Assembly (NCBI GenBank): GCA_965649765.1
Contig: OZ287754.1
Span: 67,890,001 to 67,954,000 of the forward strand
From: Bispira polyomma
Lineage: Eukaryota
DNA: 64,000 bases
Direction of reading: 5' to 3'
In this document: positions 1 to 33,042 of the stretch, in pieces
Layout: each line of letters begins with the position of its first letter
Position numbering within the stretch: position 1 is the stretch's first letter
Program-made: the position numbers and the translations under genes
Notes under the pieces: generated by a model
Seen by the model: only the letters and a program-made list of their open reading frames with translations
Told to the model about the DNA's origin: nothing
The model's database searches: none

Positions 1-1690
1 ACATGGTTATTGCACTTCAAGCACATAGAAGGTCAGTTACCTCATTGGTTGGAGGAGTTAAATCAATTCAGTATGACCGTGATCCATCGACCAGGGGTAA
101 ATATTGCAGCGGAGCACATAAACAGTGGTCCAGATTCTGTGAGGATGTTGATGATGTAGTGCCTTTAACAGTCAAGTCTATAACAGCAAAGGTATCGTTG
201 AAAGATCTGTTCCTTGTTCCTATCTGATTGTTCTCTGGGAACGATCAGTTGGTTCCGGGAAAGAGTTAGAACAGAAGGAGTTATTTTTATGCAGTCTTGA
301 AGGTAATCATTTTTATGTCTGTAGAAAGCAGTTGGTGTACCAGGACGGATTGTTGTTTTACAGGTGGAGAGAAGAATTTGGAGACAGACTGTTATTAATG
401 GTTCCAGAAAAACTGAAACAGGAAGTTATTTCTTACAATCATGATTTACCATTTACTGGACATATGGGGGTGACGAAAACCACAATTAGGGTTAAGCAAT
501 CATTTATGTCGTATGGGATCACCAAGGATATTGAAATATATGTGAAATCTTGTCCAGTATATAACAAGAACAAAAGTCTAACATAGAGGCCAAAGCAGCT
601 TTAGGATGGTACCATGCTGGATTTCCATTGGACAGGGTACATCTGGATATTTTAGGACCATTTACTGAGTGCAAATGGTAATCAGTATGTTTTAATGTTA
701 GTGGATCAGTTATCCAAGTGGCTTGAGTGTTATCCTTTGCCGAATCAAACAGCTGAGAGTGTTGCAAAATGTGTTGTTGATGGTATTATCTCAAGATTCG
801 GGTGTCCAGGGGAGGAATTTTGACAGGAAATTATTTACTTCTGTCTGTGAACTACTGCAAATATCTAAAACTAGAACTACTCTATATCATCCTTGCTCTA
901 ATGGTCAGGTAAAGAGATATAATTGGACGCTACTGCAATTGATTTGGTATTTTCTGCAGGATGGTCATCAGTCATGGGATCAGTATTTACAGCAATAAGC
1001 TGGGGCAATCCGGCCTACTGTGAATCGACAGACAGGGTTTACACCGAAACTAATGATGCTTGGTCGTGAAGTTCTGGCGCCCGTTGATTTAATGCTGGGA
1101 GAATTTGACAGGCTACAGGAGTCAACTCCAGCTGAATATGTGCATAAATTACAAACTATTCTGCAAAAAGTGCATATGTTGGCTAGGCAAAAGTTGAAAT
1201 TAACTCAGGAAAGACAGAAACGGGATTATGACTTGCGTTTGAAGGTGAACACTTACGAACCAGGTGATGTGGTTTATCAGTTGGACTCAGCTAAAAAGAT
1301 TGAACAAATTAGTAAGCTACAACAGATTTGGAAGGGACCATTCCTCGGTGTTATCTCCAATCTTATTCAGGGTGGTCAATCCTAAGAAAACCTTTGTAAT
1401 ACACCATGACAGGTTAAAACCTTGTCGGGATAGGGTCATACCTCTGTGGTTAAGCCGAAAAAGAAGCAAACTGCTAGAAAATGGAAATCCTGATACAGAA
1501 TCCGGTGAGGATATGAATAATCTAAATATTGATTGGCTGTACTCAAATGAAACTCACAGTGATACTGGGCACAATTCACAACTACTGGAGAATAGTGAAC
1601 CGTCTGTACCTCTTACCTGAGAAACAACTAATTCGGAAGTAACAACCTCGCCCGTGCTACCACCTCCTGCATCTGAAGATTTATCTTGAG
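1..1690 (+). mobile_element. Gypsy (Ty3) LTR retrotransposon pol remnant: integrase zinc-binding, core and GPY/F regions, with frameshifts and stops
   Basis: ORF fragments contain HDLPFTGHMGVTKT...YVKSCPVY (integrase H2C2), an RVHLDILGPF-type core start, TTLYHPCSNGQVKRYN, TGFTPKLMMLGRE, QERQKRDYD, KLQQIWKGPF and IHHDRLKP. Confidence 0.9.
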
Positions 1691-1862
1691 CTACTAGGAC
1701 AGGAAGGGAGACAAGTAGACCAAATTATCTGTCTTAGTTTACTACTTAAGATAGCTAAAGTTGGTTTGTTATCTTGCATGAACAGTCAAGGTTTGTTTAC
1801 GGAACTTACTAACTTTGGAGCCTGTCCCTATGAATAGTCAATAATGTTTTTTATTTCTTTAG

Positions 1863-4543
1863 ATGCAGAGACATTGTAGCTATCAACGTGAAAAATCCAG
1901 AGGTGGTAGTCATCCGGGGAGTCGTCCTCAGGATTCCTCACCTGAAAGCCAAGAGGTTTCTACTGACAGACAGGATGCAAGGAGTCGCCATTCGGATTCC
2001 TTGTATCAAAGTCAGATAAGGTATAGCCAGGGTGAGAGGAGTCCCCATTCTGTTTCCTACTCCAGACATGATTCAGATTCTTCATGCCGGAATCAGACAT
2101 GTTATAGCCAAAATGAGATGCATCGCTATTCTGATTCCTACTCCAGACGTGATTCGGGTTGTCATGCCGAAGTCACGCAGAATATAGTTAGGAAAAGAGG
2201 AGTCGATATCATGATTCCTATCCTCGTCATACATACAGAGAAGAGAGTCCTCATCGTGATTCTTCTCGCATTAACAAGGGTTTTGATCTTTCAAGCCAGA
2301 GGGAAACAACGAGGGAAGAGGACCAGAAAATAACTGATTTGCTTGTGCAGCTATGTTACTGGGTGAGGCCGGAGATTATTCAGGTGAGTGTACAACATCC
2401 CAGAAACTGCAGAAGGCCATTTGACAAGACATGGTGTGACAAGACATGGCTTCATCTTGCATCGAGGCAACATTATCTGTTTTAGTGCGCCCTAGCAGGT
2501 CAAGTGCAACCGAATCAGTGGCTAGTAAACCAAGTGCGACCATGCCAGTGGCTTCAGTGCGCCCTAGCAGGTCAAGTGCAGCCGCATCAGTTGTTCCAAA
2601 ACCAAGTGCGGCCACGTCAGTTACCTTAGATCATTCCAGCAAACAAAGTACAGTCACGTCAGTTGCCCAAGGTGTTTCTAAGTGAAGTGCACACCCTGCG
2701 GAGATATCCTCTGCAGAGGGTATGAGTCATAGTGTTTTGACACTCCGAGTATTGGACAGTCGACCTGTGGAGCGATCCACTACAGCTTTTACCCAGGAGG
2801 TGAGTGTACCATCAGGATCGGACAACCGTGGTAAGCGAAGGTCACCGGAACCTAGGTACTCTGGTGCACAGCAAAAAAAAGATCAGACAACAGCAACCTT
2901 CATCTGCAAATCAACCTTTTTCTGCAAAACCCTCAAAAAATGCCTGTTACATGGACAATTGTTATGTGAGAACAACACACCTTAAAAGGCATATGGTGGG
3001 GCAACATCTTCCAGCTTGTTGTGCCTTGCAGAGTGAAATGCCTTTGAATGATAGGATGAAACAGTTTAAGGAAGTCCTCATGAACATCCGTGGGATAGTT
3101 GGCTGTGGGAATTTAAATGAGTAGTTGGATCTGGTTCCTGAAAGGGACTGGTATCCAGCCAGTGAATTTTATACACTGACTGAGGGGGATAAAATATTGA
3201 TAAACAATTTTCATATGTGGTTTACTGGACATCCCTTAACTACGGCGTCACGGACCAATCCTCCCAATCATGTGTCATCATTGGTTCAGTGGAGAGCTTT
3301 GAGTCATCTAATTAACTGTGTCAGTGAAGAAAGAGTACAGTGGTCTCGACCAAATTTTTTTGGTGCAGGTAGACGCTGCGAATGTTTAGTCCGATGTGGA
3401 GGTGGTGCTTGTTGAGGATGAGGTTAGACTATCATCCACTCCTGCTATTAGACCACCCTCTGAGCCAGAATGAATGGATACAGGTGAACCAAGCAGGGGG
3501 GCGCTCTCAGGGGTAGAGGGAACATCACCTGTGAGGCAGCTGCCCAGAGCAGAAGAGACCTTGTATGCAGCCGTTGGCATTCAAGGGAAGAAGTCGAGGG
3601 GAAATCACCTGTATTTGTTGTGCCAACGGTGTCTTACGCAAGCAAGGTGACAGCCAAGGGAACTGCAGGAAGTGTGAAGGTGGTGGTTAAGGCCAAAGTA
3701 AGAAAGGCAAGACCAAGGAACATTTTGGTGCCTTATACCAAGGAGGAGAGGAGAGAGAGGGAGAAACATCAAAGGTTGAACATGATTAAAAAGAATGTAT
3801 GTGGCAGGGGGTTGATATGTGGAGAGGGGGCCCTGGTAGTATATCCTCAGAGGGATTCCCATTTCCACATGGACAGACTGCGTGAGAAGGCGAATCAAAA
3901 AATGTTTAGTAGAATACTGGAGGATGGCCCTATGCTTTCTGTTGCGGTGTGACTTAAGGTGGGCGTTTGTAATTTCTGTGATCAGGTTCCCTCCAAGGAT
4001 GATTTGGATTCTCTGAAAGAGGAAAAGGTTCTTTATTTTACTTTCGGATTGCACCCTAAGCAGGCTCATCAGGTTCTAGTCAAGGAAATGGACTGCATGA
4101 AAAGGTTGATCTCTAAAGAGGGCTGTTACCGTGAAATTGGTGAGATCGATATTGACCTGGGTGGCTACCACCGCGAGTATTTAAAGCAGCAGTGTGATGT
4201 GTTGGTTGACTTTCTACATTTTTACGTTGCAAAGCTGCTTTGGGCGAAGGTGTTGGTTATTCAGTGTCGCGATGCTAGCTACTGCACTGAAGCCAGTAAC
4301 CATTGCCTGAAGGTTATACAGGTCGAGCTGCCGCAGTTTAACATGCAGTCTTACCGGATCCACAGGCATTGCTACAATGGGGGGATGGAGGAAAAGGAGG
4401 AATGGTTAAGACGGTTTTAGAGGGTGATGTTTGAGTTCACGGCAATACTTCTCCGTGATACTAGACATAATGAGCTTGAGGAAGTAGTCCGAACATTACT
4501 ACTCTACCGGATTCTTCTAGAGATTGATTCTCCGCATCTTTAG
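1863..4543 (+). pseudogene. Degraded extra ORF after the integrase: R/S-rich low-complexity region, C2H2-like finger, C-terminal TatD domain
   Basis: Polypyrimidine tract plus AG (tttttatttctttag) ends at 1862. ORFs 2804, 3125, 3620 and 3959 share one frame. Contains CYMDNC...HLKRHMVGQH and PPNHVSSLVQWR. Confidence 0.7.
3851..4543 (+). pseudogene. tatD: TatD-family metal-dependent nuclease domain (in-frame stops, C-terminal helices missing)
   Basis: Collinear TatD motifs: RDSHFHMD, YFTFGLHPKQA, IGEIDID, LVIQCRDA, IHRHCYNG and, reading through the TAG at 4418-4420, MFEFTA...RILLEIDSPHL. Confidence 0.85.
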
Positions 4544-4557
4544 GTGCCTATGTTTCC

Positions 4558-4730
4558 TATAACTCACAAATAATTGTTGATGCAAATGCATACTATTATT
4601 GTTTTATTTAACATACAAATAATTGTCGATGCAAATGCATAATAGTATTGTTTTCTTTAACTTGCAAATAATTGTTGATGCAGATGCATAATCTTAATGT
4701 TTTCTTTAACTGTATAAATATTAGTTGATT
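4558..4730. repeat. ~49-bp tandem repeat, about 3.5 copies
   Basis: Repeated caaataattgttgatgcaaatgcata...gttttctttaac. Confidence 0.75.
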
Positions 4731-4920
4731 AAACATAAGTATTCTTTGGCTATAAAATTATCCCAGTATTTCAAAGTATTTACAGCAATGTGTGGTGGGC
4801 AGGAAACTAATGGGTAACCTCAAATTTATATTTACGTGCTTTATAATTTGTTGCCGCTTGCTAGTTATATTTATCCCCTTTTTGGTTCAAATTGTGATGT
4901 AACATTACAATACAGCACAT

Positions 4921-5140
4921 AATTTAACTGCATTATTAAATTTCATACTCTGTACTATACTATATTCTAAATTATAAATAAATCAAATCCTAAAATTAAT
5001 TCTCTTTAATTTAATTACATTATGAAATTCTATACTCTTCTAAATTAAAAATAAATCAAATCCTAAATTAATTCTCTTTAATTTAATTGCATTATTAAAT
5101 TCCATACGTTTACTAAATTATATATAAATCAAATCATTAA
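4921..5140. repeat. ~75-bp AT-rich tandem repeat, about 3 copies
   Basis: Repeated aatttaa(c/t)tgcattattaaatt...ataaatcaaatcctaaa. Confidence 0.7.
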
Positions 5141-6426
5141 TAAATTATGTTGGATGTAAGTACATTAAAATATCCTATACTTTGCCAAAATGCAAATTAA
5201 ATCATAACCAAATTTATATTTTGTTGGCTATGTCATATCCTCAGTAAATATGTTTGCACTGGCTTGCTGTGTTTTTCTGCCACTTGTATGTTCTTTGTTT
5301 ATATAATTTCATTTAATGTTATGTTTTTCCTGGGTTAATTTTCGTTTGCTGTGCTATTTCTCTTCTTCAATGTCAAGTATGGGTATTAATTTCTATATAT
5401 TGTTCCAATTATAAACTATAAAACTTGAACTGCTTAAAATCTCCTTTCTCTTAATATTAAGTCAATTAATGATTGGTGTTTGCTTTTATATACATATATG
5501 TGTGGCTTTTCTCTTTAATATTGCACCCCACATCTATTATGTCCGTTTTAATATAAACATTTCTTATTAATATATACTTGTTTAAAATGTCATTTGTTGT
5601 GTTTCCATTCTTGTGTTTTCCACTCTATTAAAATAACTTTTATCAACTCCTGACCTGGGCTTGCCAGTAAAATCAGAAGGTTTAAGATCCGAGGGTGACC
5701 TTGACCACGACCTTGAAGGCAAATGACCTTGACCTTGGTTCACAAACCCTTTTGAGTTGGTTGACAGCGTGTCTGTCCGTAAAACATGCCTTCTCCGATA
5801 AGACGGTGACTGCATTCCTCCAAGAATTAGTTGTAAGGTAAAATTATATAGGTGTCCTAACAAAGTAATCCTTGAACCTAGGCTGCAATATCTCACTTGC
5901 TCATGACTCCGTCTCTTCAGTGTGCTCAATTTACACTACTAGATTGAGAAAACTTAAGGCTAGATTATCCAGTTAGAATATTCCAGTAACAGCTTTTGGT
6001 CGGTAGCTGGGTTTCAACCACAGGAAATCGGGCAAGGTGAATTGGTTGGTCAGTGGGTAACCGGCCAGTGTTGTCTCAGACAGTGGGTGGTAGGGGACTC
6101 CAGAGTACCAATATGAGTTCTGGTTAGGTGGGATAGTTTCAACTCTTGGGTTATGGTCTTGTCGACCTTATCGACATGGTGCAGTAGATGGTAGGCACAT
6201 GGATTTACAGGTGATATCAATAAGGTCTCTTTTCCAGATAACTTTTGGAAAACTAGAGAAAGAACCAAAATGGAGGAGAAGCATAAAAGTTCCATACACT
6301 CCAATCAGGGAGAGAAAAAGCATACGTTGCAATACTTGAGGGATACAAAGAGTTCAAGCTGATAATTTAGTCTTGATGCAAACAAGTCCTATATTAGGAA
6401 AGAAATGGAGTTTGTGCAAGACATCA

Positions 6427-8040
6427 TTAAAACAGTGGGGCAGAGATTTCATTCAGTATTACAGTTAAATACCCCACTGAGACTGTCAGTTTGTGTATTA
6501 GCAGCACCAGACAAGTGTTTTTGTCTATTGTCCAGGCCCATATTTCTCTAGAGATTTTATTACATTCAACTGATTTACACCCACTAAATATGTTAACATA
6601 AGCCACTGCACAAGTATTATCTGACAACACATGGATGTGTACATTTATGTAAGCAGAACACAAAGCTCTGAGAGTAAACAAAATGGATTTTAATTCAAGA
6701 CTGTTTATATGCAAGAGTTTTTCCTTGGCAGACCAAATTCCATTTGCTTTTTCTCCCCATGGCTGTAATAAATCCCCCATCCTGTGTTTGAAGCATGACA
6801 AGTGGCAGTAACAGTAGTAGGTCATGATTAATACAGCATGAAGAGTATACACCTCTGTCCATCCACTATTGTAAGTCTTGCTGTGACTCTCGGGAAACAC
6901 ACAAACTTTAATGCAGAATTTCTGTCAAATTCAAAACTTCTATAATGGAGCTGGGAAAACCAGGCAAAGGCACTTATAAACAGCCCAATTATCTTACTCA
7001 CAAACTGGATGCTAGGTCTTGGAATATTAAGCAGTTTCCAACACATGGTAAATATATTATGTACTTTCTCAGGCGTTAGTTTGATAGTCATAAAAAGAGA
7101 GTTCAATAAAAAAAAACTAGGAAGCATATTTCCTGAACTGGTATGAGAAGCGATTTTTTTTTTTTTATGTATTATAAAACCTAATTTGTGAAATAATATA
7201 CATGTAGTATTACGGACACTAAAGCAAGTGCAGTGGCAATTACCAGTTGCTTTCAAGTTATAACAGGAAAAAATAAAATGTTTCACTTAGCAAATTTATT
7301 TAACAATTAAAATTAAGATCCATTTAGCGTTCACTAACACACAATGTCTATATCCAGAGAGCTGTCCACTCCAAAATGCAAACAATATCCAATATGCAGC
7401 AAATCCACTCTCTGGTAAATCCACAGCTTTATATCTAGTTCACTCCAATGAGTTCACCACAAAGGTATATAATAACCGGTTTATATCCACTTGACACCGT
7501 AATAAAGTGTTTCACAGTATAGCAGGCTGTACAGCACACCAACTCAACAAACTCTGCCCTGTGGCCAGGTGTTCAACCCCTTATACCCTGGAGTTATAGA
7601 AGTTTCTAGAAAGTAGGTAAACAACAGTGACTGGAAGGTTCTAGAAAGAATTGTAAACAAATCAATACATTTCAAAGAAAAGCACTACACAAAGCTAAAG
7701 TTCCAGAAGCTTAGGGGGTCCTCCCCAAATCTATGAATAGATCACTCTAGCAAAGTGCAAGAAATATCAGCTGTAGACCAGTTCTGCATTGACATATAAC
7801 AATGTCCTTATATGTAACAGTGGCAACTATGTTAGCCTGACACTGTTCATAAGTAAGGCCATTAAGCCAACTGTCATCGATATAAACCACCAATTTATGT
7901 CCTTGTAACCTTAAGTGAGCACAGGGAGGCTTTAGGATTTTGCTAAACATCCGGGACAACAGGCTAGCTAGGAAAACAGTGAATTTGTAAAAACATCCCC
8001 AAAATTCCAGATTGATGTTCATCAGAATTACAATCAAACT
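6427..8040 (-). mobile_element. DIRS-type (tyrosine-recombinase retrotransposon) RT/RNase H remnant, split by an insertion
   Basis: FSKILKP...LRLQGHKLVVYIDDSWL (RT), LFHKLGFIIH, and HINSLELKSI...VLSDNTCAVAYVN (DIRS RNase H). Confidence 0.8.
7203..7812 (-). mobile_element. ~0.6-kb insertion in the DIRS RT, possibly a solo LTR
   Basis: Separates QANIVATV from LFHKLGF, which are normally adjacent. On the minus strand it has a gggtataagg TATA-like motif, aataaa and a terminal ...ctaca. No clean TSD found. Confidence 0.35.
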
Positions 8041-12238: not shown

Positions 12239-13337
12239 TGCCACAATCAAAAGCATTGTGTAAAAAATGTGGCAACAGACACATGCCACCGACGGGGAAA
12301 AATGTAATAGAGACATACATGTTGAGACAGATAGTGAGGTAACAATGGAAGAAACCCGTGTAGTGAAGGACACTTCAGTTAGTAAACACAGGGGTGAATC
12401 TCGAGGCAGAAAGAAGTCGGCGGCGGAAGCGAGCGGCGATGACCAGGACAGTATTCAGAGGCAGATCTTGTTGCAGCTACAGAAGGTGAACGCGAGATTA
12501 GATGCAGTGGAAGACAGGGTTGAGGAGTCCAGCGCGAGTCGTCACAAGGGAAAGGAAACAAGTAGAAAGTTAAGTAGAACTGTGTAAAATAAAAAGTCAA
12601 TTAAAAGATATAGTTCTGATTGTGAGTCCTCAGATGAGGAACAAGTATTGCCAAGTTTGTCAACATTGAGAAGCTCTGCTTCATTCCAGCGTGGGGTAGA
12701 CAGTAGACTAAGGAAACTAGAGCAAGACAGTCAAAACATAGGTACTGATAATGCAAATAAAATAAAGTCAAAAAGAGGGGGTCCAGTTGAGGTAATAGTG
12801 AAGAATAAAGTAGCTTGGCATCACGAGGCAATACTAGGGGGGGTCACTAGAAACAAAGTGACCTACGACCAATTGTCTTTATCTCAGTGGATACAAGGTT
12901 TTTGTAAAAATATCATAGAAGAGTCAGACATTGAGAAAAAAGAAAAAATGGTAATGTACATGGCTGACCTAATGGAAGATGCCACTGATTTCACATGGCA
13001 AGGTGCAAAGGCAGCTCATGCTGTCTTGCTTTGTGAAATGGAACAGGGTACACTTTCTTGGCATGACACCAGTAGAATTGATAGAATTCGCAGAGCCCAT
13101 GCTCAAAAACACACAAGTAGTGGCATAGGTAATGCAAAAAAATTTGAAAATGGCAGTAAAAAACCTTGGTTTTGTAAATTTTTTCAAAACGGAACGTGTC
13201 AACATTGTAAAGATCACAAAATTTGGGGAAAGTGGCACAGAGATATCTGTTCTCACTGTGTGATCACAGGGCGTATTTTGTCCCACCCTGAAAAAGACTG
13301 TCTGTTCGCCAAGAAAAATCAAACAAAAAACGAATAA
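12239..13337 (+). pseudogene. Ngaro ORF1 (gag-like) with N- and C-terminal Cys/His fingers, frameshifted
   Basis: Starts MPQSKALCKKCGNRH... at 12239. Contains YDQLSLSQWIQGF, LMEDATDFTW and CKFFQNGTC...H...CSHC...HPEKDC. Confidence 0.75.
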
Positions 13338-13709: not shown

Positions 13710-16700
13710 CACAGTAGTTTTAATTTGCACAAATCCAGCACTTTAGTTGTAGTGCTGTGTTTACTTCTCTTTGGCCCAGTAACAGAGAGGAGAGTGTTTA
13801 CTGTCTATCTCACACACACAACTCACTAGTGGGATTTTATCCAGAGAAAGGGGATGTTAATTACATACTTCTTTTAAATAATGCCCTTTTTCTCAGGATG
13901 TATTGTACTTATAAATAAACAAATTACATGTATTAAAAGCTTATTCTTTTCTGTATACAGTGGTTTAAATACTTTTACAGAAAAAAAGTATATATAGATT
14001 AAATTTACTGACATTCCATTCCCACCTAAGAAGTAACAAAAAAATGGGAAACTGAATTACTACAAATATTAATGTCAATATTTTAATAGATACGGGTTTT
14101 TTATTTTAAAAAAACTTATAACACCTTATTCTAGAAAGTCTACTCTTTCAATAGATATAAATAATATATGCTTTCCACTTTTTTTAAACAAGCAGTAGTC
14201 CACTGAATGTTGTCAAAATTGTTCAACCTGTTAGTTGAAAAAGGAAGCATGTATCCTGTGAGTCATACAGTTATTAATGGCTTTGTGGCAGTAGTTGTAC
14301 ATGTGTGTATGTTTCCTGTAATTCATACATGTTTACAGTTATTAATGTCTTTTTAGAACGTCACAGTTTCTACATACACCATGCGAGTAGTTGGCTCATG
14401 TGTATTCAAAAGTACCTTCTAATTTCACTTATACTGATCCTTTGATAATTTGTAAAATATAAAACTGAAAACATGTCTTTTGATTACCACAAACAGTGTT
14501 TATTAAATATGTGTAGAATATGTGGAAAAAGAGCACTGACTGATCAACAAATACGGAAAAAAACTCCACAAAGAGTTTGTCAAAATGTGAAAGATGAAAT
14601 ATATGTATTTTTTGGATTGGATATTTGTAGTGATAATGATATTTACCCTAAAACTATATGTTGTCCTTGTTATAACAAAATGAAGAAAGCCAAGGTATTG
14701 TCAGATGATTCAAATATGAACAAAGAAAGGCTTTTAGGAGAAAAAGAAAAGGCAAATAATGTGAATAAAATGTGGTCATCACATAAAAGATATAACTGTT
14801 TCGTATGTAATTCATACAATTCACAAAAGAAAAAAGGCAGACCTGTCTGCATTAAGAAGCAAGGCAGACCAAAAAATCCACAAAAACCAGATGAAAACAT
14901 TTTTAGCATACTTTTTGGGGAAGGAAATCATTCTGAAAAGATGGATATTGAAATCCAGAATATGTCATTATCTCAAAGTAAAACTTTCACATGCCAAATA
15001 TGCCAGAATATATACTCTGTGTGTTCTGTCATAACTATGTGTGATCATTACTTCTGTTCAGAATGCTTGTCAAGCTATTTTAAACACAAAGACAGTGAGG
15101 TTACCGAGTGTCCCACTTGTTATACCTTTATTCAGTGTGATGAAGTTAGAAAATCTGATGAAAGATTTAATGATCAAGTTAAAAATCTTGATGTGAAGTG
15201 TTTGAAATGTAACTATATTGGACCACTCTCAACATTGCCATTACACAATTGTGAGCTTCAAGGAAGTGTCCCCGACAGCTTTGAAACTAGTCTTTATGAT
15301 GTTGCACATAGAGATGAATATAGAAGTCAATCACACAGCACTCCAAAACATAACACTGATGAACAAAAAACTGAAATAGAAACACAGACCTCTCCAATTG
15401 AAGATATACATCAAACATCCATTTCTTTACATGAAACATCAATTTTACATACATTGCAAAGGTCAATCTCATCACCATTATCAAAAGAGGAAGAAAGAGT
15501 TCATACTCACCTAACAAAACGCAAATTAACATTTGCAAGAGACAAAACCACAATAGCTTGCAAAACTGGAGGCCAACCAATTCTGCTAAAAAGACTTGTA
15601 AAACCCAGAAAGTCATCTGATATGGCAAAATCACCATTAAAAAGAAGAAGGGCAAAACAGATTTCCAAATTTCGTGCTATTTTGGCTGGGCCAGGTATTA
15701 TTTCTCATCAAAAGCAACAAATGTCAGAGCTAAAACTTGTGTCTAAAAAATCTCGTGTAGACATATGTGCAGGTGCGGGAGTAAAACAAAAAAGTTTTCT
15801 TTCAAAAAGAGTTGCACTAGCCATGAAGACTTCACTACGATTATCCTGGGCACAACATTGAATGCAGACACGTGTTTTGTCTGAAACTCTTGGTGTTAAG
15901 TGTGAGAGTGAAAAAACATTAAGAGCTGAAACAAAATTTCTGCTTTCTGATCACCTATCCACCACGATGATCAAGGCCAAAGAAAAAGATGATGTAGCAT
16001 GCAAAAGCAAAGATGGTTTTAGAGAAGTACAGGTCCCTGTCGTGTACATAAAAGATTTGACAGACTTTGTAAAGGAGTTGTTGCACAACTATAAAAAGGC
16101 AAATATGTTGGTCTGGAAGGAAGAAATGCCTGAAAATGAAATCTGGGTAAAACTCGGTGGTGATCATGGTGGGAAATCATTTAAATTATGTCTTCAAGTT
16201 TGCAATTTAGAAAAGCCAAATGCAAAACAAAATACTATGGCGATTGCTTGTATGCCAGCCAAAGATCTGCATGAAAATCTTACAAAATTAACCGAAATAT
16301 ACAAGAATGAAATCCAGAAATTACAGAAAGGACATTGGAAGAGAAAGAAGATCAGGGTGTTTTTGTTTGGAGACTATGCATTTCTTTCTGCTATGTATGG
16401 ATTGTCGGGTATAAGGGGGACATATTTTTGTTTATGGTGCTCAGTCAAAACTGATGCCATGCAGACATCATTACACCACAGAGGTCATTCTGCAAAGAGA
16501 ACACTCTCCACACTTAAAATGGATCATGATAATTTCATCAAAAAGGGAAAAGGCCAAACAAAGCTGGCCTCCCAGTATCATAGTGTTATTCATGATCCAT
16601 TATGGGATATAAAGATAAGTCATGTGTGTCCACCTAATCTGCACATATTACTTGGAGTTGTCAAAAAGCATCATGATCTCCTTGAAAAGGATCTACATGA

Positions 16701-18523
16701 AGTAGATTTAGAAATTGTTACTGAAATACAACTGTCAAAGGCAAAGCTTGACAATTCAGTGTTTCATGTCTTTATTCAAAATGTACGGAACTGCCGCAAG
16801 CTTCAAAATGAACTTCGATACATCTCTCCCACACAAGGTGACAGCAGTAGTGAAAATGCTACACTGACCAAAACGGAAGCTGCAGAGTTGGACTCCAGAA
16901 TCAAGAATTTACAGCACAAACTGGAAAAACCAATTCCCACACTGAGTGTATTTAGTGGACCATTAGATGCTGAAGTACAGCAAGTTTTGAAGACAGCATA
17001 TTGTACAACAGGCTTATCACTCTCGCAGCTTTGTTGGCAACCATTGCTCCAAATACATTAAACAAGGTGTACAAGATGACATATGTGCAAGCTTACAAGA
17101 AAAAGTGTGTGAACTGTCCAGAAATATTGAGCTCAATGAAAATGGTGCAAGCATAGCAATGAAATTTCAAAAACTGAATACTTTGTTTTCTGTTGTGCAT
17201 GATGAAATTGGCCATATGAGGTCAGTTACTCAAAATTATCTTGAGAAAGTAAGTGATGCCATTCAGAAATACATGTCATTTTACAGAGAACATTTTCCAA
17301 ACTGTGTGATAACCAAGATGCATTTTTTAGAAGACCACATTGTTCAATGGATGCATAAATATAAATTTGGTATGGCTCTTCATGGAGAACAAGGCGGAGA
17401 ATCCATACATCGGGAATTCAATAAACTTGAGCATACCATGTCCCATGTTCCCAATTTGGAAAAAAGACTGCTGTATGTTATGCAGGAACATCACACAATA
17501 TACCATCCTCTTGTTCAGCAAAAAGTTGTTAAACCTAAATTCAAAAAACACAAACTATAGGTCGATAGCCTTGCCTTTGTGTATCAATGAATGAAATTAA
17601 AGTTAATTGGCATTTTACACTAATTTTAAGTGGATCAGTGATAATATAATGTAGATCAGTCTAAAATATGTTATTACATAGATTTATCAATAACAGAAAG
17701 AACTGTGCTGCAAGAAAATGTGTTAGTGGAAACTGTATATATTTTTCTTCATAACATTCCTGTCTCCTTCAAGTTTCAGAGTTTATTTATAAAAAAGTAT
17801 TCATTTAAAATATAAAATATATTGACAATCTAACTGTCTCAGTAATGAAGACTGTAACAGAAAACACAACACCTATTCCTTCACTGGTAGAGTTTTGTTT
17901 ATACAGAGGCATAAGGATATATGTTTACACTCAGCCTTCTGTGATATAAAGCCTTCTGTACTTCACATATGCCCGTGTTCAGGATACTTTGAGCCAACAC
18001 TGATGTTAAATGTGAGTACTTTGTATTGCCATTTTTTTCTAATTAAAAAAAATGGAAAGTATTTTTCAGGTATATTATTTGAATCAGGAAAGGTAGTACA
18101 TTATAAAGATATAATTTTTAAGAAAATAAAAAACCCGATTCATACTGAAATTGTTTGATATAAATGAGTTGTTTTAAACAGAAGTTCATTTCATTCAGCA
18201 GTTTATTGTAGTAAGTACATGGAATGGAATGTGCTAGTTTTACACAAGAGAACAATTATTATATTCTTTAAATGTTACATAAATGAAAAGTTAACATTTC
18301 AAGCTTTTAATAGAGGTTATTTTTTTTCTAAAAGTGTGGATAAAAGTAAAGTAAATATAACAATCAATTAAAGAGATGCACTCTTTGTACAAAGAACTTC
18401 CCACTTAAAATGAGTTGTGTGTGTTTCACTGGGTTTTGGGGAGAGGGAGTGTTTACACTGAAAACCTGCTAACTGCTGTGTTACAGTAGAGTCAACTAAA
18501 CATACACTAACAAAACTACTGTG
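13710..18523 (+). mobile_element. Chapaev / N-RAG-TP-like DNA transposon (4814 bp) with a RAG1-like transposase
   Basis: 12-bp TIR CACAGTAGTTTT (13710-13721) and AAAACTACTGTG (18512-18523). About 470 bp of collinear subterminal inverted blocks. GGCT follows the right end and also lies 2 bp before the left end (imperfect 4-bp TSD). Interrupts Ngaro ORF2. Confidence 0.85.
14473..17560 (+). pseudogene. RAG1-related (Chapaev-type) transposase of about 1030 aa: Chapa zinc domain, AT-hooks, C3HC4 RING, zinc finger, DDE core; one stop and one frameshift
   Basis: HKQCLLNMCRICG...ICCPC...WSSH...CFVC; GRP twice; CQIC...CDHYFCSEC...CPTC; CLKC...HNC; KTGGQP; KLGGDHGG; FLFGDYAFL; FCLWC; LHILLG; QAYHSRSFVGNHC (after a frameshift near 16995); KMHFLEDH; HGEQGGESIH. 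In-frame TGA at 15859-15861. Confidence 0.9.
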
Positions 18524-20110
18524 GGCTGTTAAATGTGACGTGACTGCTAGGTCTTATGCCAGTGTAATAAAAAACAGACTTAGGGAAGTCAAAACACGAC
18601 AACTTAGCAAGACCGTTAGTAGTACACAATGTGTCAAACTTATTGATGTGACAACTTGTAATGAACTAAACAAAGCTGGGGTGAAAGAGCAGCAGCTCAC
18701 ACCTTCCACCAAAAAGTTAGACAAAAGACAGAGGGGAAATTTTCCTCCCCACAGAAATCGACAACGGGTCAGAAATGACTCACATGATAACTCAAAGCAT
18801 GAAACCAAACTGTTATATAATATAAATGGCATGGATGACAAGTTTATCAACTCCATACTTTTTCATGGCCCTGGGACAAACATATCCAAACAGACGGGGG
18901 GGGCGATTGTAAAAGCTTTAATAAATTTTAAGAACAAACAGAGTTTCAATTTGGTTTTGTTCCTTTGAGTGACCCCATGACTTCTGACCAAACAAACAGA
19001 CAGTGTAGTATTGCATGTCCACTCAAGAGACATAATGAGGTCAAAAAAAAATGGGAGGCCCAATTTTATGGGTGCGAGAATACCAGTGGTTTAAACATAA
19101 GTCAGTGGAAAAAAATGTTAAATTTGGCAAGGTATCTACATTGACACGTGCCTACCCTTTTGGAGTCGTCATAGCAGTCAGTTTTTTTAACGGGTCAGTG
19201 ACGCAGTGCGTTACGTTATGCGTCAGCATGGCTTCAGTGTTATAAACTACATAGATGATTTTTTAGGGTACGGCACACCTACAGTCGCAAAACGTTCATT
19301 CGAATGTCTATATGACGTCATGGAAAAGTTAGGTCTTACAATAAGCCAGAAAAAGTTGGTAGCTCCCAGCACACAAGCAGTGTGCCTGGGTATACTTGTT
19401 GATACTGTCTAGGGCACGGTGGCAATACCGGAAGAAAAACTACAGGAAATCAAAACCACAGTAAAGCAGTGGAAAACAAAAAAATTATTGTACAAAAAGG
19501 CAGTTACAGTCCTTATTAGGACAATTACTATATATTCACAAATGTGTCAAACCGGCAAGATACTTCCTCAATAGAATGTTGGAGCTATTACGAAGTATAG
19601 CAAATCCAAACAGAGTCGAGTTGACAGAAAGTTTCAAACAAAACTTAAGGTGGTTTGACAAATTTCTGCCAAAATACAATGGTATATCCATGTATGGCTA
19701 CAAGAGGACCAATCACACATTGGAACTGGATGCCTGCTTGTATGGTTTGGGAGGTAGATGGAGGCAATTGGTATATCACCTCACCATCACATTAATTTTA
19801 AAAATTTGGGTATTGTTTACCTTGAAATGGTCAATATTTTAGTCGCTTTGAGATTATACAAAAATTATTGGCAGGGAACAAAAGTACTAATTAAGTGTGA
19901 CAACCATTCTTGTCAGCATGTGTCAGAAATGTGTGGTATATGGCAGCCACAGCGGATATTGATTGACAATTTGTGCCTGTCCTAGGTAAAGATAATACGA
20001 TAGCGGCTATGCTATCCAGATGGAAAATTGTATGGAGTTGAATTCACTGGTACACAATCTCATATGGCTACAGACTTCGATAGAACTAACAGAAGTAGAC
20101 AACAGATTGT
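18524..20110 (+). pseudogene. Ngaro reverse transcriptase/RNase H remnant (N-terminal part at ~13320-13709, before the insertion)
   Basis: YIDTCLPF near 19137, INYIDDFLG, LGILVDT, LELDACLYGLGG, LEMVNILVAL, IKCDN. Confidence 0.85.
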
Positions 20111-20170
20111 AAATAAAATAACACCATAATAACTAAGCATGTAGTTTTAGTTACGTAAAAATACTATGCT

Positions 20171-21122
20171 TTGTTTTGTGGGCACAGAAGCACTTTGGGC
20201 TCTGCAGTCAGGAGCAAATCACAGGCTCCACACAGCTTTCAGACAAGATCCAGTTATCAAGGTTTATTCAGAACATTTGTTGCATTCTGCTTATGTACAG
20301 GGCTAGCATTAGGAGCCCTAGAAGTGAAAAATGTTATGTCTTTTCTTGAATATTTGGTAATAAACAAGATATTTGTGCAAATGATAGCCAATTACGTATC
20401 TGCATTAAAAGCAATGTGTGTAATATATGAGTTGCTCTTTCATTTTTTTGACCACCCAAAAATCAAATACTTTATAAAGTCTCTAAAATTAAACAGAAAA
20501 CATGCTGTGGTTAAAAGAAACGTATTGGACATTGATACACTACAACAGTTAATAAGGCATTGTGCTTATATAAGTAATTGTTTAAAGCCATTTTTTTGAC
20601 AGATTGTTTTGGGTTCTTCAGGCTGTCCAATCTGGCTCCGCATTCAGTCAAAGAATTTGACGCATCACATCATTTCACTGGCGGTGATGTATTTTTCGAA
20701 AAAGACACGATAAAACTATTACTAAAATGGTTCAAGACCTTGCAGCACAGAGATAACCTTCAAATAATTACCCTCCCCAAACTTAAAGCTTTGTTAATTT
20801 GCCCGTATGAGGCATTGAAATAATTATTCAGATTGTATAAGCCAGGAAAGAATGACCCTTTGTTTCAACAACTACTGGTCGTCAGGTAATCACTGATTCT
20901 AGAGTAAAGAAGAATTTGGCAAAATTAAATGAAAAATTGGGATATCCACCAAATTTGTTCACTTTTCATGCATTCCGGCGTTCAGGTGCCTCTCTGGCGT
21001 ATCAGGCGCAGGTGCCTATACAGCAAATAAAGGAGCATGGCACCTGCAAGTCGGACTGTGTGTATACATATATACAATCAAACACAAATACTACAGAAGT
21101 GGCTACTACCAGACTTTGTTAA
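20171..21122 (+). pseudogene. Tyrosine recombinase of the Ngaro element, frameshifted
   Basis: FGFFRLSNL (catalytic R), ICPYEAL, FTFHAFRRSGAS (HxxR), IKEHGTCKSDCVYTYI (catalytic Y region). Confidence 0.9.
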
Positions 21123-27174: not shown

Positions 27175-30100
27175 ATGGATCAACTCGTGAAAACTGTATC
27201 GGTTGGCTCTGTAAAAGATTTACGTCAATATTTCAAAAAAGTAGGACTCAAAGGCTTACGTGACATAATGTGTGAAAAATATGGGAGAGAAAAGGGTAGC
27301 ATCCTTCATACAGTGATCAGCACACATTTAAAGCAAAAAGCTACCGTGGTCATAGAAAAACTTAAATTATTACTCGAAAAGGGAACCAACCTTGAACAAA
27401 GATATATGTATGGCAATAATGCACTGATGCATTCTGTCAAACTTGGCAGGCATAATGTAGCCAAATATATGTTGGAAATGAGCAATGTACCAATGTTAAT
27501 GGGAAACAACGATTACTGAATGAATTTGCTTCATATTGTTTCCCTCCATGGGTAGTGGTATGCACTTGGCCTGGTTTTGCAGAAAGTGGGTCACAAAAGA
27601 TTAGGAGTGTTGATGCAGCAGCAAACAACCAGGCCATTCATGAGGTATGCACCATCTATTGGGAAGTCCCTGACTATCAATGCCTGGACACCACTACATC
27701 TCGCTGCCGTTTTCTGTCATTTGGACTGTACCAAGTGGTTGGTGAAGCATGGCGCTGATACTAAAGCATTGGATGGTGAAAGGGTAGCACCTGCAGAAAT
27801 GCTACAAGTACTTGAATTCACTCAGAAGTCAGCACCCATTGCTAAGCAGTGCCATGGCTATATTGTTGCCCAAACAAAAGTTGGTTGTGAGGGATCTTTT
27901 TATTTTAACCTTTATAGTAAATAAATTGTCTAACATATCTCACTTCTATTCACACATAAAAATATGTTATAACATACAGATAAATCAATGCTAAACTAAT
28001 AGACTTAAAACAACAACATGGACTTGGACCATAATTTACATTTTACAAACACATGTAATTGATGTAACGTTCCACTCTTTAGATCGTATGATTAAATATA
28101 ATTCCGATTGAACTTCAATGCATGAAATTAATAAATTAATACCATGCGTTCAACTAGGATATTGAAAGTGGTATTTTACTAATGCAATCACCAAAAGCTA
28201 AATAGGCAGTTTAAATTCCCCATAAAAACAGGGATATATAGAAATTCAAACCCCATAAATGTATTATTTGTATTCTAGTGTCAGTTAGAAACACTATATT
28301 AGACGCAAGTCCTGGTCCTAAGGATACTACAGGGGAAAGTGAGGCACAGCCCTTGAATAAAAACCTGCTCCACAGCGGAAAATCACCACATGCCAAGTTT
28401 AAAGTTATCGTTGATTTAGACGAGTATTTGGCAAACCTTGGAATGCGATTCGAGGATGCCGTAAAGAAATTGATAGAGAAGGATGTTTCCAATGTATCTG
28501 AGTCTCCTACAGGTAATATATACCTTAACGACTTTTTAATGTTTCCATGTTCCTAATTTAGCATAAGGTTTAAACATAGTTTAATATTTTATTGAAATTC
28601 CAATTATTATGCCCAAGCTTTCACAATCTACTCCCAGACGTGAAACAGTGGTCAATAGGGCATACATATAACCCTGCCTTCTGGTGATAACATGGTCCGT
28701 GTTGTAGACTTGACAAGTATTTCACCTTAGAGGAAGCATTATCATCAGTTTGTCGCAATGCATAAACGTATTTAATGATAGTGTAATATTTATTGTTAAG
28801 ACAAAAGTAAAATGGTTTTGTCTTTGTATACTTCATACACTTCTATTTACCCCAAGCTACATTCAGTTAAACGTTTGAATGTATTTGCATTTATTTATTC
28901 TTTACACACAAAGGTATACAAAAAGTATATACAGTAAATGCTCGAAGAGAAGAGAAATAAAAATACTTACCACTCTCGCATCCAAGATTTGTCCAGGTTT
29001 AAGTAATTCATCATTGATTGACAACTGTCATCTTTATAATACTTGAGGTATCTCAGCTTTGCCAAAATTTTGCTAGTTTACTGACACTATGTGGACTGTG
29101 CACAATGTCATAAAATATATTTGGTTGCGACTGTTATAGATATACTTGGGGAATATTAATATCGACCATGTCTGGTACAAGGCGCTATACCCATCATCAT
29201 ATATACTTTATCACTTTGACTATTTGAAATCAAATTGATTTTATATTAGTGAATATTTACAACAACTGAACAGTCACCTGTTGAACAAAATCTAAAATGT
29301 ACACAGACCGGACCTAAAACAGAACCACCAGCTATAACTACATCAAGAGACAATGTCCGTGAACTACAGGACAGTGATTTGAAATCTATTAGAAAACTCA
29401 TGGATGACTATCTCAATGAACATAATGTTGACTTCAAAGATATACTCGATGAGATCAAAGCACGATGAGTTATATTTATGATTTGTTGTTTTGGTAAATA
29501 ACACACATTTCAATTCCTTGTTCCGTTCCCTGGCTATTTATTACACAACCTTCCAATCGAGCCACAACATTTTTTCTCTTTTTTTTTAAAAAAATATTTC
29601 TAGCTATTTTCCCAGATCTGTTTTTGTGACGTTTTATTTTCTGGGTTCCCAATCATCTTTGTGTTCTAAATTTTGTCCCATGTTAACAGATGGCCCAGAT
29701 ATTTCTATCTTCTTCCTTTTATTTCGGTTTTGTTTTTACGATCATATAATATTACACAACTATTTTTCACAAAACACTTATAAAAAAGGGTACGTTAATA
29801 ATAGTTGCAATATGAATGAAACAGTTATATTAGTGTCTCTATAACATACTTATCATTACATAATACAATCAAGTTGATTAATGATTTGATTAAGTCAAAA
29901 GGGTGCGTACACTTTATGATGGAGTGTCAATTATGACATCCATATTTTGTACCACTAATAGCAGCAAAATACACTCCCAAAAGATCAAATTAGAGATACC
30001 AAATATTGCAGGGTTGTAGCGATAGTGTTACACCAGTAACGCATTCTCTATCGTGTACATAACACTTCATCTACCTACACAGTAAATTGGGCTTAGATAT

Positions 30101-33042
30101 GATTCATGGCTATCAGTACAGAGTTTAACACATTGTAAACCAATTGAAATACAGATAGGCAGGACATATCGAATCCTACATCATTGGCTGATAGGTGAAA
30201 CTGTGTATTGAAGTGGTATCTATGATAATCTGTATGTCATCGCAGTAGATGGGCATACTTAGGACTGCATTTAATAATATATATATATAACAACACTGAT
30301 GAAAGGTGGATGAAAAAGTCAAGTACCTGCTGCAAGACTTATTTATTGATCTAATAGAGCGGTACTTGGTATAAGACTTATTTATTGATCTAATAGAGCA
30401 GTACTTGGTATAATACTTTTTTGTTGATCTAATAGAGCAGTACTTGGTATAATACGTATTTATTGATGTAATAGAGCAGTACTTGGTATAGTACTTATTT
30501 ATTGATTTAATAGAGCAGTACTTGGTACAAGACTTATTTATTGATCTAATAGAGCAGTACTTGGTATAATACTTATTTATTGATCTAATAGAGCAGTACT
30601 TGGTACAAGACTTATTTATTGATGTAATAGAGCAGTACTTGGTACAATACTTATTTATTGATCTAATAGAGCAGTACTTGGTACAAGATTTATTTATTGA
30701 TCTAATAGAGCAGTACTTGGTACAAGACTTATTTATTGATGTAATAGAGCAGTACTTGGTACAATACTTATTTATTGATCTAATAGAGCAGTACTTGGTA
30801 CAAGATTTATTTATTGATCTAATAGAGCAGTGCTTGGTACAAGACTTTTTTATTGATGTAATAGAGCAGTACTTGGTATAGTACTTATTTATTGATCTAA
30901 TAGAGCAGTACTTGGTACAAGACTTATTTATTGATCTAATAAAGCAATACTTGGTATAATACTTATTTATTGATCTAATAGAGCAGTACTTGGTACAATA
31001 CTTATTTCTTGATCTAATAGAGCAGTACTTAGTACAAGATTTATTTATTGATATAATAGAGCAGTACTTGGTACAATACTTATTTATTGATCTAATAGAG
31101 CAGTACTTGGTACAAGATTTATTTATTGATGTGATAGAGCAGTACCTGGTATAAGACTTATTTATTGATGTATTACAGCAGTACCTGCTACAAGACTTAT
31201 TTAATGATCTATTAGAGCAGTACCTGGTACAAGACTTATTTATTGATCTAATAGAGCAGTACATAGTACAAGACTTATTTATTGATGTAATAGAGCAGTA
31301 CTTGGTACAATACTTATTTATTGATGTAATAAAACAGTACCTGGTACAAGACTTATTTATTGATCTATTAGAGCAGTACCTGCTACACGACTTATTAATT
31401 GATCTATTAGAGCAGTACCTGCTACAAGACTTATTTATTGTTCTATTACAGCAGTACCTGCTACAAGATTTATTTATTGATCTAACAGAGCAGTACCTGC
31501 TTCAAGACTTATTTATTGATCTATTAGAGCAGTACTTGGTATAAGACTTATTTATTGATCTATTAGAGCAGTACCTGCTACAAGACTTATTTATTGATTA
31601 ATTAAAGCAGTACTTGGTATAAGACTTATTTATTGATCTATTAGAGCAGTACCTGGTGTAAGACTTATTTATTGATATGATGGGACTTGACATTTGTTTT
31701 TTCAGATTTGTTATAGCAGTAAACTCGGATTTAGACACAGATGACTTAGATGGCTACTCCAGCTCTTCCTTTGAGTCCTATAATACTGATGACTTTGAAG
31801 ACAATTCGTCAGATGAAGAGGCCATGGCTTCTGCACCAAAAGCACGGAAAAGCTGCATTATAAAGGATAATAACTCCGATGATGAAGATCTGTCAGTGCC
31901 AGAGGAAGTTTTAGCTGCAACACTGGAGGACTTTAGCCTGCCGGTATTGAATTTTTGTCCACATAAAAATACCACAAAAGAAATGGTAATTAGACCAGAC
32001 AGAAAAAAAACTGTGTCAGGTAATAATTTCATGGGTGTTTCTGTGTTCTCTGAAGGTTACCCCAAAGTTGAATCGAAGAATTAGTAGTACACGTATATGA
32101 CTGAATTCAAAAGATGATAAAATCACTATTATGGGCTTCACTTTTGGCTAGGATTTTTCATATATTCCATGTGGTAGAGTGTGTGCCTTGATTTTGCAAT
32201 AGGTCGTTAGTTCGAACCCCAGTTTTGACAATATTCATTGAATTGTTTTCCCATAGAGTGAACCAGGTACTCTTTAATTTGCATATGTAGTTCTTTGAAA
32301 GTAAATCCTGAAAGGTCAGGTATCGGTTATATAAGCAAGTAACATCTATATAAAAAGGTGGAAATCAAAGCAGGTTTTCTGAATTCTAAACAATCAGCCT
32401 CCAGCAAGAATACTGCAAACTTTCCCAAAATTCGAACCTACAACAGAAAAAATAGGGAGCAAATGTGTTTCCACTACACCAGCGTGGTCCTTGCTGATGT
32501 TTAAACCAGGGAGACCCAGTTAGTAAAGTGCCAGATTCTAGACAGATGTGATATGTTCATTTAGGTTGAGCTCAATAATATATAACACTATTATTTTGAT
32601 CTGATTGAATATGAAATGAACAACTGTGAATACCTTACATAATCATGTAAAAAATATATTAATTTAATTTCACATAAACACCAACACTTAAAATGTCCTA
32701 AATTTTAAAATATTTGAAAATATGTAATTATATAGAAGCCACTTGAAGTGTTTTGTAATAATGAAACCCTTATATGTTAGATGCAAATACTATTATTCAA
32801 TATTTTAAACAGTCTACCCTACTGATGCCACTATCCGTGATATAGCTATGAGGATCACTTTGCAAAAATTAACCATATTTGCAAGAAGTTTGGGCTTTGA
32901 TGCAAGCCATCCATGTTGTGCAGAGCCACGGAGAGATACTTGTGACCAAGCCAAGGCGTTACTGATGAACTGGAGGGAAAAACAGGTTCAAAATAGAGTT
33001 GAAGTGTCTCAAATTAGGACCCAGTTAAATGACATTTTTTAA
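27175..33042 (+). pseudogene. Multi-exon ankyrin-repeat + Death-domain gene, pseudogenised (exons ~27175-27883, 28279-28512, ~29250-29464, 31720-32019, 32813-~33005)
   Basis: Ankyrin motifs SILHTVI, GNNALMHSV, (G)MNLLHIVS, WTPLHLAAVFCHLDCTKWLVKHGAD. In-frame TGA at 27517 and TAG near 27553. Phase-1 AG/GT junctions. Acidic exon. Last exon TDATIRDIA...FARSLGF...DQAKALLMNWREK is Death-fold-like. Confidence 0.7.
30322..31676. repeat. 39-bp tandem minisatellite, about 35 copies, intronic
   Basis: Consensus tatttattgatctaatagagcagtacttggtacaagact, head-to-tail with no spacers. Confidence 0.95.

Follow-up and report, generated by a model that had tools for sequence, protein, structure and literature searches.

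A TATDN2-related nuclease gene in the envelope position of a decayed Gypsy element from Bispira polyomma

The integrase and nuclease genes of the locus

The 64,000-nucleotide stretch of Bispira polyomma contig OZ287754.1 analysed here (forward-strand positions 67,890,001–67,954,000; hereafter the window, numbered from its first base) is AT-rich DNA dense with mobile-element remnants. At its start, a Ty3/Gypsy integrase is followed in tandem by an equally decayed gene, open reading frame 2 (ORF2), which encodes an unnamed zinc-binding domain, termed HWR here, and a TatD nuclease domain. The nuclease gene occupies the envelope (env) position of the Gypsy element.

The window begins within pol. 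Positions 1–154 (+ strand) translate into the presumed end of a Gypsy-type RNase H region and the following pol linker; the first ~150 bases resemble an RNase H end in their motif, and the 52-residue RNase H-like piece has no Pfam match. The decayed integrase spans positions 155–1425 (+) and consists of a zinc-binding domain, a core that is split over several frames with a damaged catalytic region, and a C-terminal domain. Pfam detects Integrase_H2C2 (E = 2.7e-15 in 155–583), Integrase_p58_C (E = 2.2e-5 in 1249–1617) and, below its cut-off, rve (E = 2.7e-5 in 656–820). The three domains, corresponding to the zinc domain, the Asp-Asp-Glu core and the C-terminal domain, follow one another in the order expected of a retroviral-type integrase and confirm the Gypsy-type integrase that the initial annotation placed upstream of the TatD gene on the same strand. 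A probable low-complexity pol tail (1426–1737, +) extends in translation to a stop codon at 1735–1737 and is presumed to belong to pol from its resemblance to the C-terminal pattern of Gypsy pol. Of the canonical protease–reverse transcriptase–RNase H–integrase order, the window holds only the presumed RNase H tail and the integrase; the reverse transcriptase and the 5' part of the element lie outside the window. A Ginger-type DNA transposon was considered as an alternative and is disfavoured by the sequence 5' of the integrase, which we take for an RNase H tail.

ORF2 spans positions 1863–4543 (+), or 893 codons. It had been annotated as an intronless reading frame of ~890 codons, and its length, its collinearity with intact proteins and the lack of an intron-sized gap bear this out, but the frame is not open. 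Several stop codons and frame changes interrupt it, and the longest open piece is 156 residues. This copy is a pseudogene that cannot make protein. From position 2222/2303 to 4549, ORF2 is collinear with two intact proteins, P0152 (1017 residues) and P0153 (960 residues), at 25–42% identity, and the in-order alignment indicates that the broken pieces once formed a single protein of similar length. The alignment shows no gap large enough for an intron, apart from the linker at 3360–3700, which is unalignable. From the ATG at 1863, the alignment to P0152 and P0153 is weak (E = 0.11).

The N-terminal part of ORF2 (1863–2926, +) is broken, aligns to P0152 and P0153 and contains Arg/Ser-rich repeats, a helical patch and a Ser/Thr/Ala-rich linker. 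The small conserved helical patch (~2300–2430) is modelled in P0153 as a small helical domain and is present in three of 169 relatives; profile comparison between the first piece of ORF2 and its close relatives gives no significant match. In-frame tandem duplications of 81 bp (1990–2151) and 72 bp (2481–2624) are also observed in the disordered part of ORF2. The HWR domain (2927–3352, +) starts with a Cys/Cys/His/His arrangement that resembles a zinc site, continues as a helical bundle and carries one internal stop. A linker with frame changes (3353–3850, +), within which the alignment to P0152 resumes at 3704, connects the HWR domain to a TATDN2-related class II (HxH) TatD nuclease domain (3851–4549, +).

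The TatD domain is recognised by Pfam TatD_DNase (PF01026; E = 2.6e-11 on 3953–4417). Against a profile of relatives, the segment reaches 184 bits, compared with 6.1 bits for the best of 500 codon shuffles, and the match is therefore real and well above chance. All TatD motifs quoted in the initial annotation lie collinearly in one frame, but the set is not full as was claimed. The position equivalent to Escherichia coli TatD H127, which is His in 77 of 77 relatives, is not His in the window, and the match spans profile positions 4–235 of 272. The last ~45 TatD residues are not found in any frame anywhere in the window. With its internal stops, lost ligand His and missing end, the window copy is not an intact, complete class II TatD domain.

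The HWR-TatD family and its relation to TATDN2

Relatives of the nuclease gene were collected from 1.84 billion representative proteins, among which 671 matched at E ≤ 0.001 (best 150 listed), and from a profile search of long proteins (841–2400 residues, 8000 candidates scored), which gave 21 matches, 19 of them new. Domain analysis was performed on 169 fetched relatives. The family architecture consists of a disordered N-terminus, the zinc-binding helical HWR domain and the TatD domain. The HWR domain is found in 86 of the 169 relatives, and many of the others are fragments or host-type genes. The window segment at 2927–3352 scores 63.8 bits against an HWR profile that was built without it. 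Conserved columns include Cys, His and His near the start and Trp-Arg near the end of the domain, and the His and Trp-Arg columns give HWR its name. The domain is modelled confidently (predicted local distance difference test score, 91), has no Pfam match at E ≤ 1 and has no counterpart among viral structure models at E ≤ 0.001. Comparison of the model with the PDB yields no clear match (best Z score, 3.5; root-mean-square deviation, 4.1; 83 aligned residues), a result that does not show a new fold. Its look-alikes in a structure atlas are unnamed clusters, one of which is mostly cnidarian among the four members with a record. HWR is a conserved, unnamed domain of ~135 residues that the initial annotation overlooked.

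The full-length model of P0153 comprises the small helical patch, the HWR domain and the TatD barrel, with disordered stretches between them. The barrel adopts the triosephosphate isomerase (TIM)-barrel fold and matches YcfH, TatD and TATDN3 with E values of 1e-13 to 4e-12. At the sequence level, P0001 alone finds no match among PDB sequences, and the profile does. Named hosts of HWR-TatD proteins are the bivalves Dreissena polymorpha and Ruditapes philippinarum and the sea urchins Strongylocentrotus purpuratus and Lytechinus pictus. In the 77 complete TatD domains of HWR proteins, the equivalents of E. coli E91, H127, H152, E201 and D203 are conserved in 76, 77, 77, 77 and 77 cases, respectively; the HxH motif was the selection pattern for these domains and is not counted as independent. 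E91, E201 and D203 correspond to E593, E705 and D707 of TATDN2 (PMC10711561). The median TatD-domain identity is 29% in the HWR family versus 50% among 13 host-type domains. Judged from these alignments, a fast-diverging, often multi-member family keeps its predicted catalytic residues. A strongly hydrophobic 19-residue window occurs in only seven of the 86 HWR relatives. Additional domains are rare: a NADAR domain lies ahead of HWR-TatD in P0091 and P0136 (two of the 169 relatives), and an RRM on P0103 and zinc knuckles on the host-clade TatD protein P0107 are observed once each.

The descent of the family was analysed in a tree of 75 rows under LG+G4, containing 46 family rows (the window and one short HWR-less member among them), 15 host-type rows and 14 prokaryotic rows. 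Five host rows carry an organism name, one of which is named TATDN2, and the other host rows are labelled by similarity. The HWR family and host TATDN2 are joined at 100/100. A single clade holds 45 of the 46 family rows (100/97), and the window groups with P0152 and P0153 (99/90). In an earlier unrooted 99-row mixture-model tree, the host rows also fall together (93). The approximately unbiased (AU) test rejects a grouping of the window with five TATDN2 rows of mollusc type (p-AU = 0.0004). These rows stand for the host phylum as presumed from the named relatives, which suggest a marine invertebrate and perhaps a mollusc. The TatD domain of the window shares 25–29% identity with 13 host-type TATDN2 domains compared with 41–42% with P0152 and P0153, and none of nine host-type proteins examined has an HWR domain. 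On these sequence comparisons, the HWR-TatD family is placed as the sister group of animal TATDN2.

The tree against host and bacterial TatD that the initial annotation had proposed, built here with TATDN2 and prokaryotic rows, thus puts the window inside the HWR family. The tree placement and the AU rejection indicate neither a retrocopy nor a bacterial import. Phage relatives (19 records) align over the TatD part only at <60% identity, and neither these records nor the prokaryotic loci of a GTDB scan point to a direct donor among bacteria or phages. A processed copy or a decayed paralogue of the host TATDN2 gene would share the long disordered N-terminus and C-terminal TatD domain that host TATDN2 likewise has, and TATDN2 is the nearest named relative in the tree. 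However, the lower identity to host-type domains than to P0152 and P0153, the rejected grouping with mollusc-type rows and the lack of HWR in all nine host-type proteins largely refute such an origin, which is extremely improbable and which the initial annotation had itself named, as a processed copy, among the refuting alternatives. The direction of transfer is suggested by the distribution of TATDN2, which is reported from most eukaryotes (PMC10085689) and so favours capture from a host. The reverse route, in which animal TATDN2 was itself domesticated from this retroelement lineage, would fit the placement of one HWR protein with the host genes but is very unlikely.

Linkage to the Gypsy element and possible functions

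The nuclease gene lies close behind pol. Recognisable integrase sequence ends no more than 440 nt before ORF2, and the probable stop of pol lies about 125 nt ahead of ORF2; no terminal repeat, repeat boundary or second mobility gene is seen between integrase and ORF2. A splice-acceptor-like site (1845–1862, +) with 14 pyrimidines in 16 positions and a terminal YAG ends one base before the first ORF2 ATG; among the 3536 YAG sites of the two window strands, 26 are this strong, and the site was noticed post hoc. Strand and decay are shared, in agreement with the initial annotation: pol and ORF2 have GC skews of 0.16 and 0.15 and observed/expected CpG ratios of 0.43 and 0.49, from which three neighbouring elements differ (CpG ratios of 0.17–0.29).

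Downstream, the gene is truncated. An AT-rich stretch (4551–5640, no strand assigned; 25% GC) with 49-bp and 73-bp tandem repeats begins exactly at the break of the TatD gene and occupies its expected end; it is an insertion or replacement of unassigned origin. A GC-richer block (5641–6219, +; 45% GC) follows as the candidate 3' long terminal repeat (LTR). The block adjoins a DIRS-like remnant on the minus strand, the frames of which reach about 6200, and the junction could be an insertion boundary. By motif resemblance, this remnant (about 6200–8040, −) holds presumed reverse transcriptase, RNase H and methyltransferase sequences, and it has no Pfam match. The LTR-like character that the initial annotation gave to the block was not recovered. 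A polypurine tract, taken as a 12-mer with at least 11 purines ahead of a TG, is not present in 4545–6100, and the block, which is distinguished by its 45% GC content, shows no credible inverted termini.

The env position, the acceptor-like site and membership of a non-host family that keeps its catalytic residues partly uphold the idea, already put forward in the initial annotation, that a captured nuclease is cargo of the Gypsy element, but the LTR that was to frame it is not confirmed. It is probable that ORF2 belongs to the Gypsy element and was expressed from a spliced subgenomic RNA as a separate, soluble, non-envelope protein; for the HWR-TatD family as a whole, the probability of Gypsy linkage is somewhat lower. 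Probable, too, is an old capture of a TATDN2-type gene, which would have been fused to a new zinc-binding domain and spread by such elements. With moderate confidence, the locus is read as the dead 3' half of a Ty3/Gypsy element that carries a nuclease as its third gene, from a family that such elements spread after that capture.

Several observations weigh against this interpretation. Only at a single locus is HWR-TatD observed next to a Gypsy integrase. None of the 169 relatives has a reverse transcriptase, RNase H or integrase Pfam domain, and a blastx comparison of the window pol with the relatives found no pol. None of the 21 matches of the long-protein profile search has pol domains; a single-protein search gave no match in 695 candidates among longer proteins and one match near the query length. 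No second copy of the candidate LTR lies in the window, outside of which the 5' end of the element falls, and repeats stand in place of the 3' end of the gene; the locus was thus rearranged at least once. Clusters at 90% identity contain 1–115 members (median 6) for 12 HWR proteins and 1–13 (median 1) for nine host-type proteins, as expected of mobile genes, but the counts may reflect several assemblies or isoforms. In the tree, the rows are hand-picked, the branches are long, the model is LG+G4, and TATDN1, TATDN3 and non-animal TATDN2 are not included. One HWR protein, P0095, groups with host TATDN2 (98/92, and likewise in the earlier tree), which might stem from a further capture, from domain swapping or from an artefact. 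None of 51 prokaryotic TatD loci in a GTDB scan has an HWR domain. As regards function, a basic cluster precedes HWR in only 22 of 62 proteins and lends little support to a nuclear location. Human TATDN2 is reported to have minimal activity on plain RNA:DNA duplexes (PMC10711561). DNA is the substrate of TATDN1, TATDN3, the E. coli paralogues and QatD (PMC10085689, PMC13434339), so that what the HWR-TatD nuclease acts on is not deducible from descent.

The single locus, the mosaic of nested elements in the window and the lack of pol fusions among the 169 relatives would also be compatible with an HWR-TatD gene that came from another mobile unit, or was swapped among element types, and adjoins the integrase by chance. 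Exonuclease ORFs of bdelloid rotifers are indeed common to LTR and Penelope-like elements (PMC5408684). Such an origin is nevertheless quite unlikely, because no terminal repeat or second mobility gene separates integrase from ORF2, the acceptor-like site lies at the ATG, and strand, skew and CpG decay fit pol and not the neighbours.

For a Gypsy-borne nuclease, the following mechanism is proposed. ORF2 would be read from a spliced subgenomic RNA through the acceptor at 1862, consistent with the typical splicing of ORF3s in LTR elements (PMC5408684), and would yield a soluble protein distinct from an envelope. The nuclease may resemble TATDN2 in being a metal-dependent 3' RNase; it would remove RNA from R-loop-like or structured RNA substrates, with binding supplied by the disordered basic N-terminus and the HWR domain. 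Acting in trans and probably inside the nucleus, it would clear the transcript of the element from the element's own DNA, which may sustain expression of the element and make it less conspicuous to silencing or damage responses. The human TATDN2 enzyme acts on RNA as a 3' exo- and endonuclease that removes the RNA of R-loops, requires E593 and E705 and depends on its disordered N-terminus for binding (PMC10711561), and medaka TATDN2 protects primordial germ cells (PMC12709183). RNA substrates are favoured over trimming of cDNA because the nuclease is related to TATDN2, an RNA and R-loop nuclease in humans. By this analogy, RNase activity on the element's own R-loops or structured RNA is the most likely single activity, ahead of DNA exonuclease and counter-defence roles, and is put forward tentatively.

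The integrase of an LTR element itself processes the cDNA ends. This speaks against the role suggested in the initial annotation, a DNA 3'-5' exonuclease or apurinic/apyrimidinic (AP) endonuclease for the trimming or repair of cDNA ends ahead of integration. The retained active-site residues are the same, and 3' exonuclease and AP endonuclease activities are reported for TATDN1, TATDN3 and three E. coli paralogues (PMC10085689). However, the closest characterised relative, TATDN2, lacks appreciable DNase activity (PMC10711561), the gene is separate from pol and nothing indicates packaging, and a role in cDNA trimming is unlikely. A counter-defence or competition factor would destroy nucleic acids of rivals, or those that trigger host sensing or silencing, and not the element's own intermediates. 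Fast divergence with a retained active site would suit such a factor, as would the NADAR domain in front of P0091 and P0136. NADAR domains reverse ADP-ribosylation, and with this function the fusions lean towards a role in host conflict. TatD has also been co-opted for anti-phage defence in QatD (PMC13434339). Since NADAR fusion is restricted to two of the 169 relatives and the proposal partly overlaps with an R-loop RNase, a counter-defence role is likewise improbable, to the same degree as cDNA trimming.

Neighbouring elements and known systems

The remainder of the window contains further element remnants, and an Rfam scan of the whole window gives no match. Three near-contiguous ORFs (470, 399 and 189 residues) with a RING finger and DUF1280 lie at 14449–17560 (+). 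By their motifs, they resemble a RAG1-like/Transib-type transposase; they have no PDB sequence match, no clear terminal inverted repeats and no RAG2-like ORF by eye. Presumed pieces of a second DIRS/tyrosine-recombinase-like element, also assigned by motif resemblance, flank the RAG1-like gene at 12588–13337 and 18900–20600 (+), which suggests a nested insertion. The nearly intact end of a long interspersed nuclear element ORF2 (61105–63679, +; RVT_1, E = 7e-33, and zf-RVT), a hAT transposase dimerisation domain (54795–55559, −; E = 5.6e-19) and a ~36-copy array of a 39-bp unit (30168–31600), one minus-strand frame of which is open for 441 codons, are also observed. An ankyrin fragment (27556–27924, +) and a CUB domain fragment (45032–45412, −) are possibly host exons.

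Among known systems, the bdelloid rotifer Ty3/Gypsy elements Juno and Vesta are the closest in layout and carry a DEDDy exonuclease or a GDSL esterase as ORF3 (PMC5408684). They share with the window a non-envelope enzyme gene 3' of pol, one of them a 3'-5' exonuclease, and with the HWR-TatD family intact catalytic residues. Their exonuclease has a DEDDy fold, whereas the window gene encodes a TIM-barrel TatD domain in a multidomain protein of ~900–1000 residues with an unnamed zinc domain. Moreover, the bdelloid elements are recent branches in one group, and HWR-TatD proteins occur in molluscs and echinoderms at the least. Juno and Vesta already provide examples of an enzyme in the env slot; that account, as consulted here, describes neither the TatD fold nor the HWR domain nor a range across phyla. 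Animal TATDN2 resembles the HWR-TatD family in its C-terminal class II HxH TatD domain after a long disordered region, its catalytic residues and its sister-group position (PMC10711561, PMC12709183). It differs in being conserved (50% median identity) and without HWR, while the window family shows 29%, is often multi-member and lies here in a retroelement. Env-carrying errantiviruses also have a third ORF after the integrase, here located behind a splice-acceptor-like site (PMC13524379). No fusion glycoprotein with a membrane anchor is found in the HWR-TatD third ORF; the P0153 model contains no fusogen and consists only of the helical patch, HWR and TatD. Bacterial class II TatD proteins (YcfH and YjjV) and QatD share the fold and active site but are single-domain proteins outside the 100/100 clade of the HWR family and TATDN2.

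Targeted literature searches found no account of a TatD- or TATDN2-carrying retrotransposon by title or abstract; Repbase, Dfam and supplementary element tables lay beyond these searches. In the consulted passages of PMC6238403 and PMC13524379, neither of which was among the matches of the full-text TatD searches, no such element is described, and PMC6962438 contains a figure-legend mention only. The window feature is probably a dead copy of an undescribed nuclease-carrying Gypsy lineage. To our knowledge, the usual assumption is that the third gene of an LTR retrotransposon encodes an envelope, and few enzyme cargos have been described, none with a shown function. An old Gypsy lineage of marine invertebrates (molluscs, echinoderms and probably cnidarians) may have kept, as a permanent third gene, a TATDN2-sister nuclease fused to the HWR domain, whose fold would be undescribed, since before the protostome–deuterostome split, managing RNA:DNA structures or evading germline silencing as the host gene does, a scenario that is plausible but somewhat doubtful.

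If true, a TatD cargo with an active site conserved across phyla would offer a tractable case, since intact natural proteins exist and assays for TATDN2 are published. It would tie retrotransposon biology to the handling of germline R-loops, for which TATDN2 is needed (PMC12709183), and HWR would provide a new domain of ~135 residues for structural work. Some gene models annotated as 'TATDN2-like' in molluscs and sea urchins may be transposon genes.

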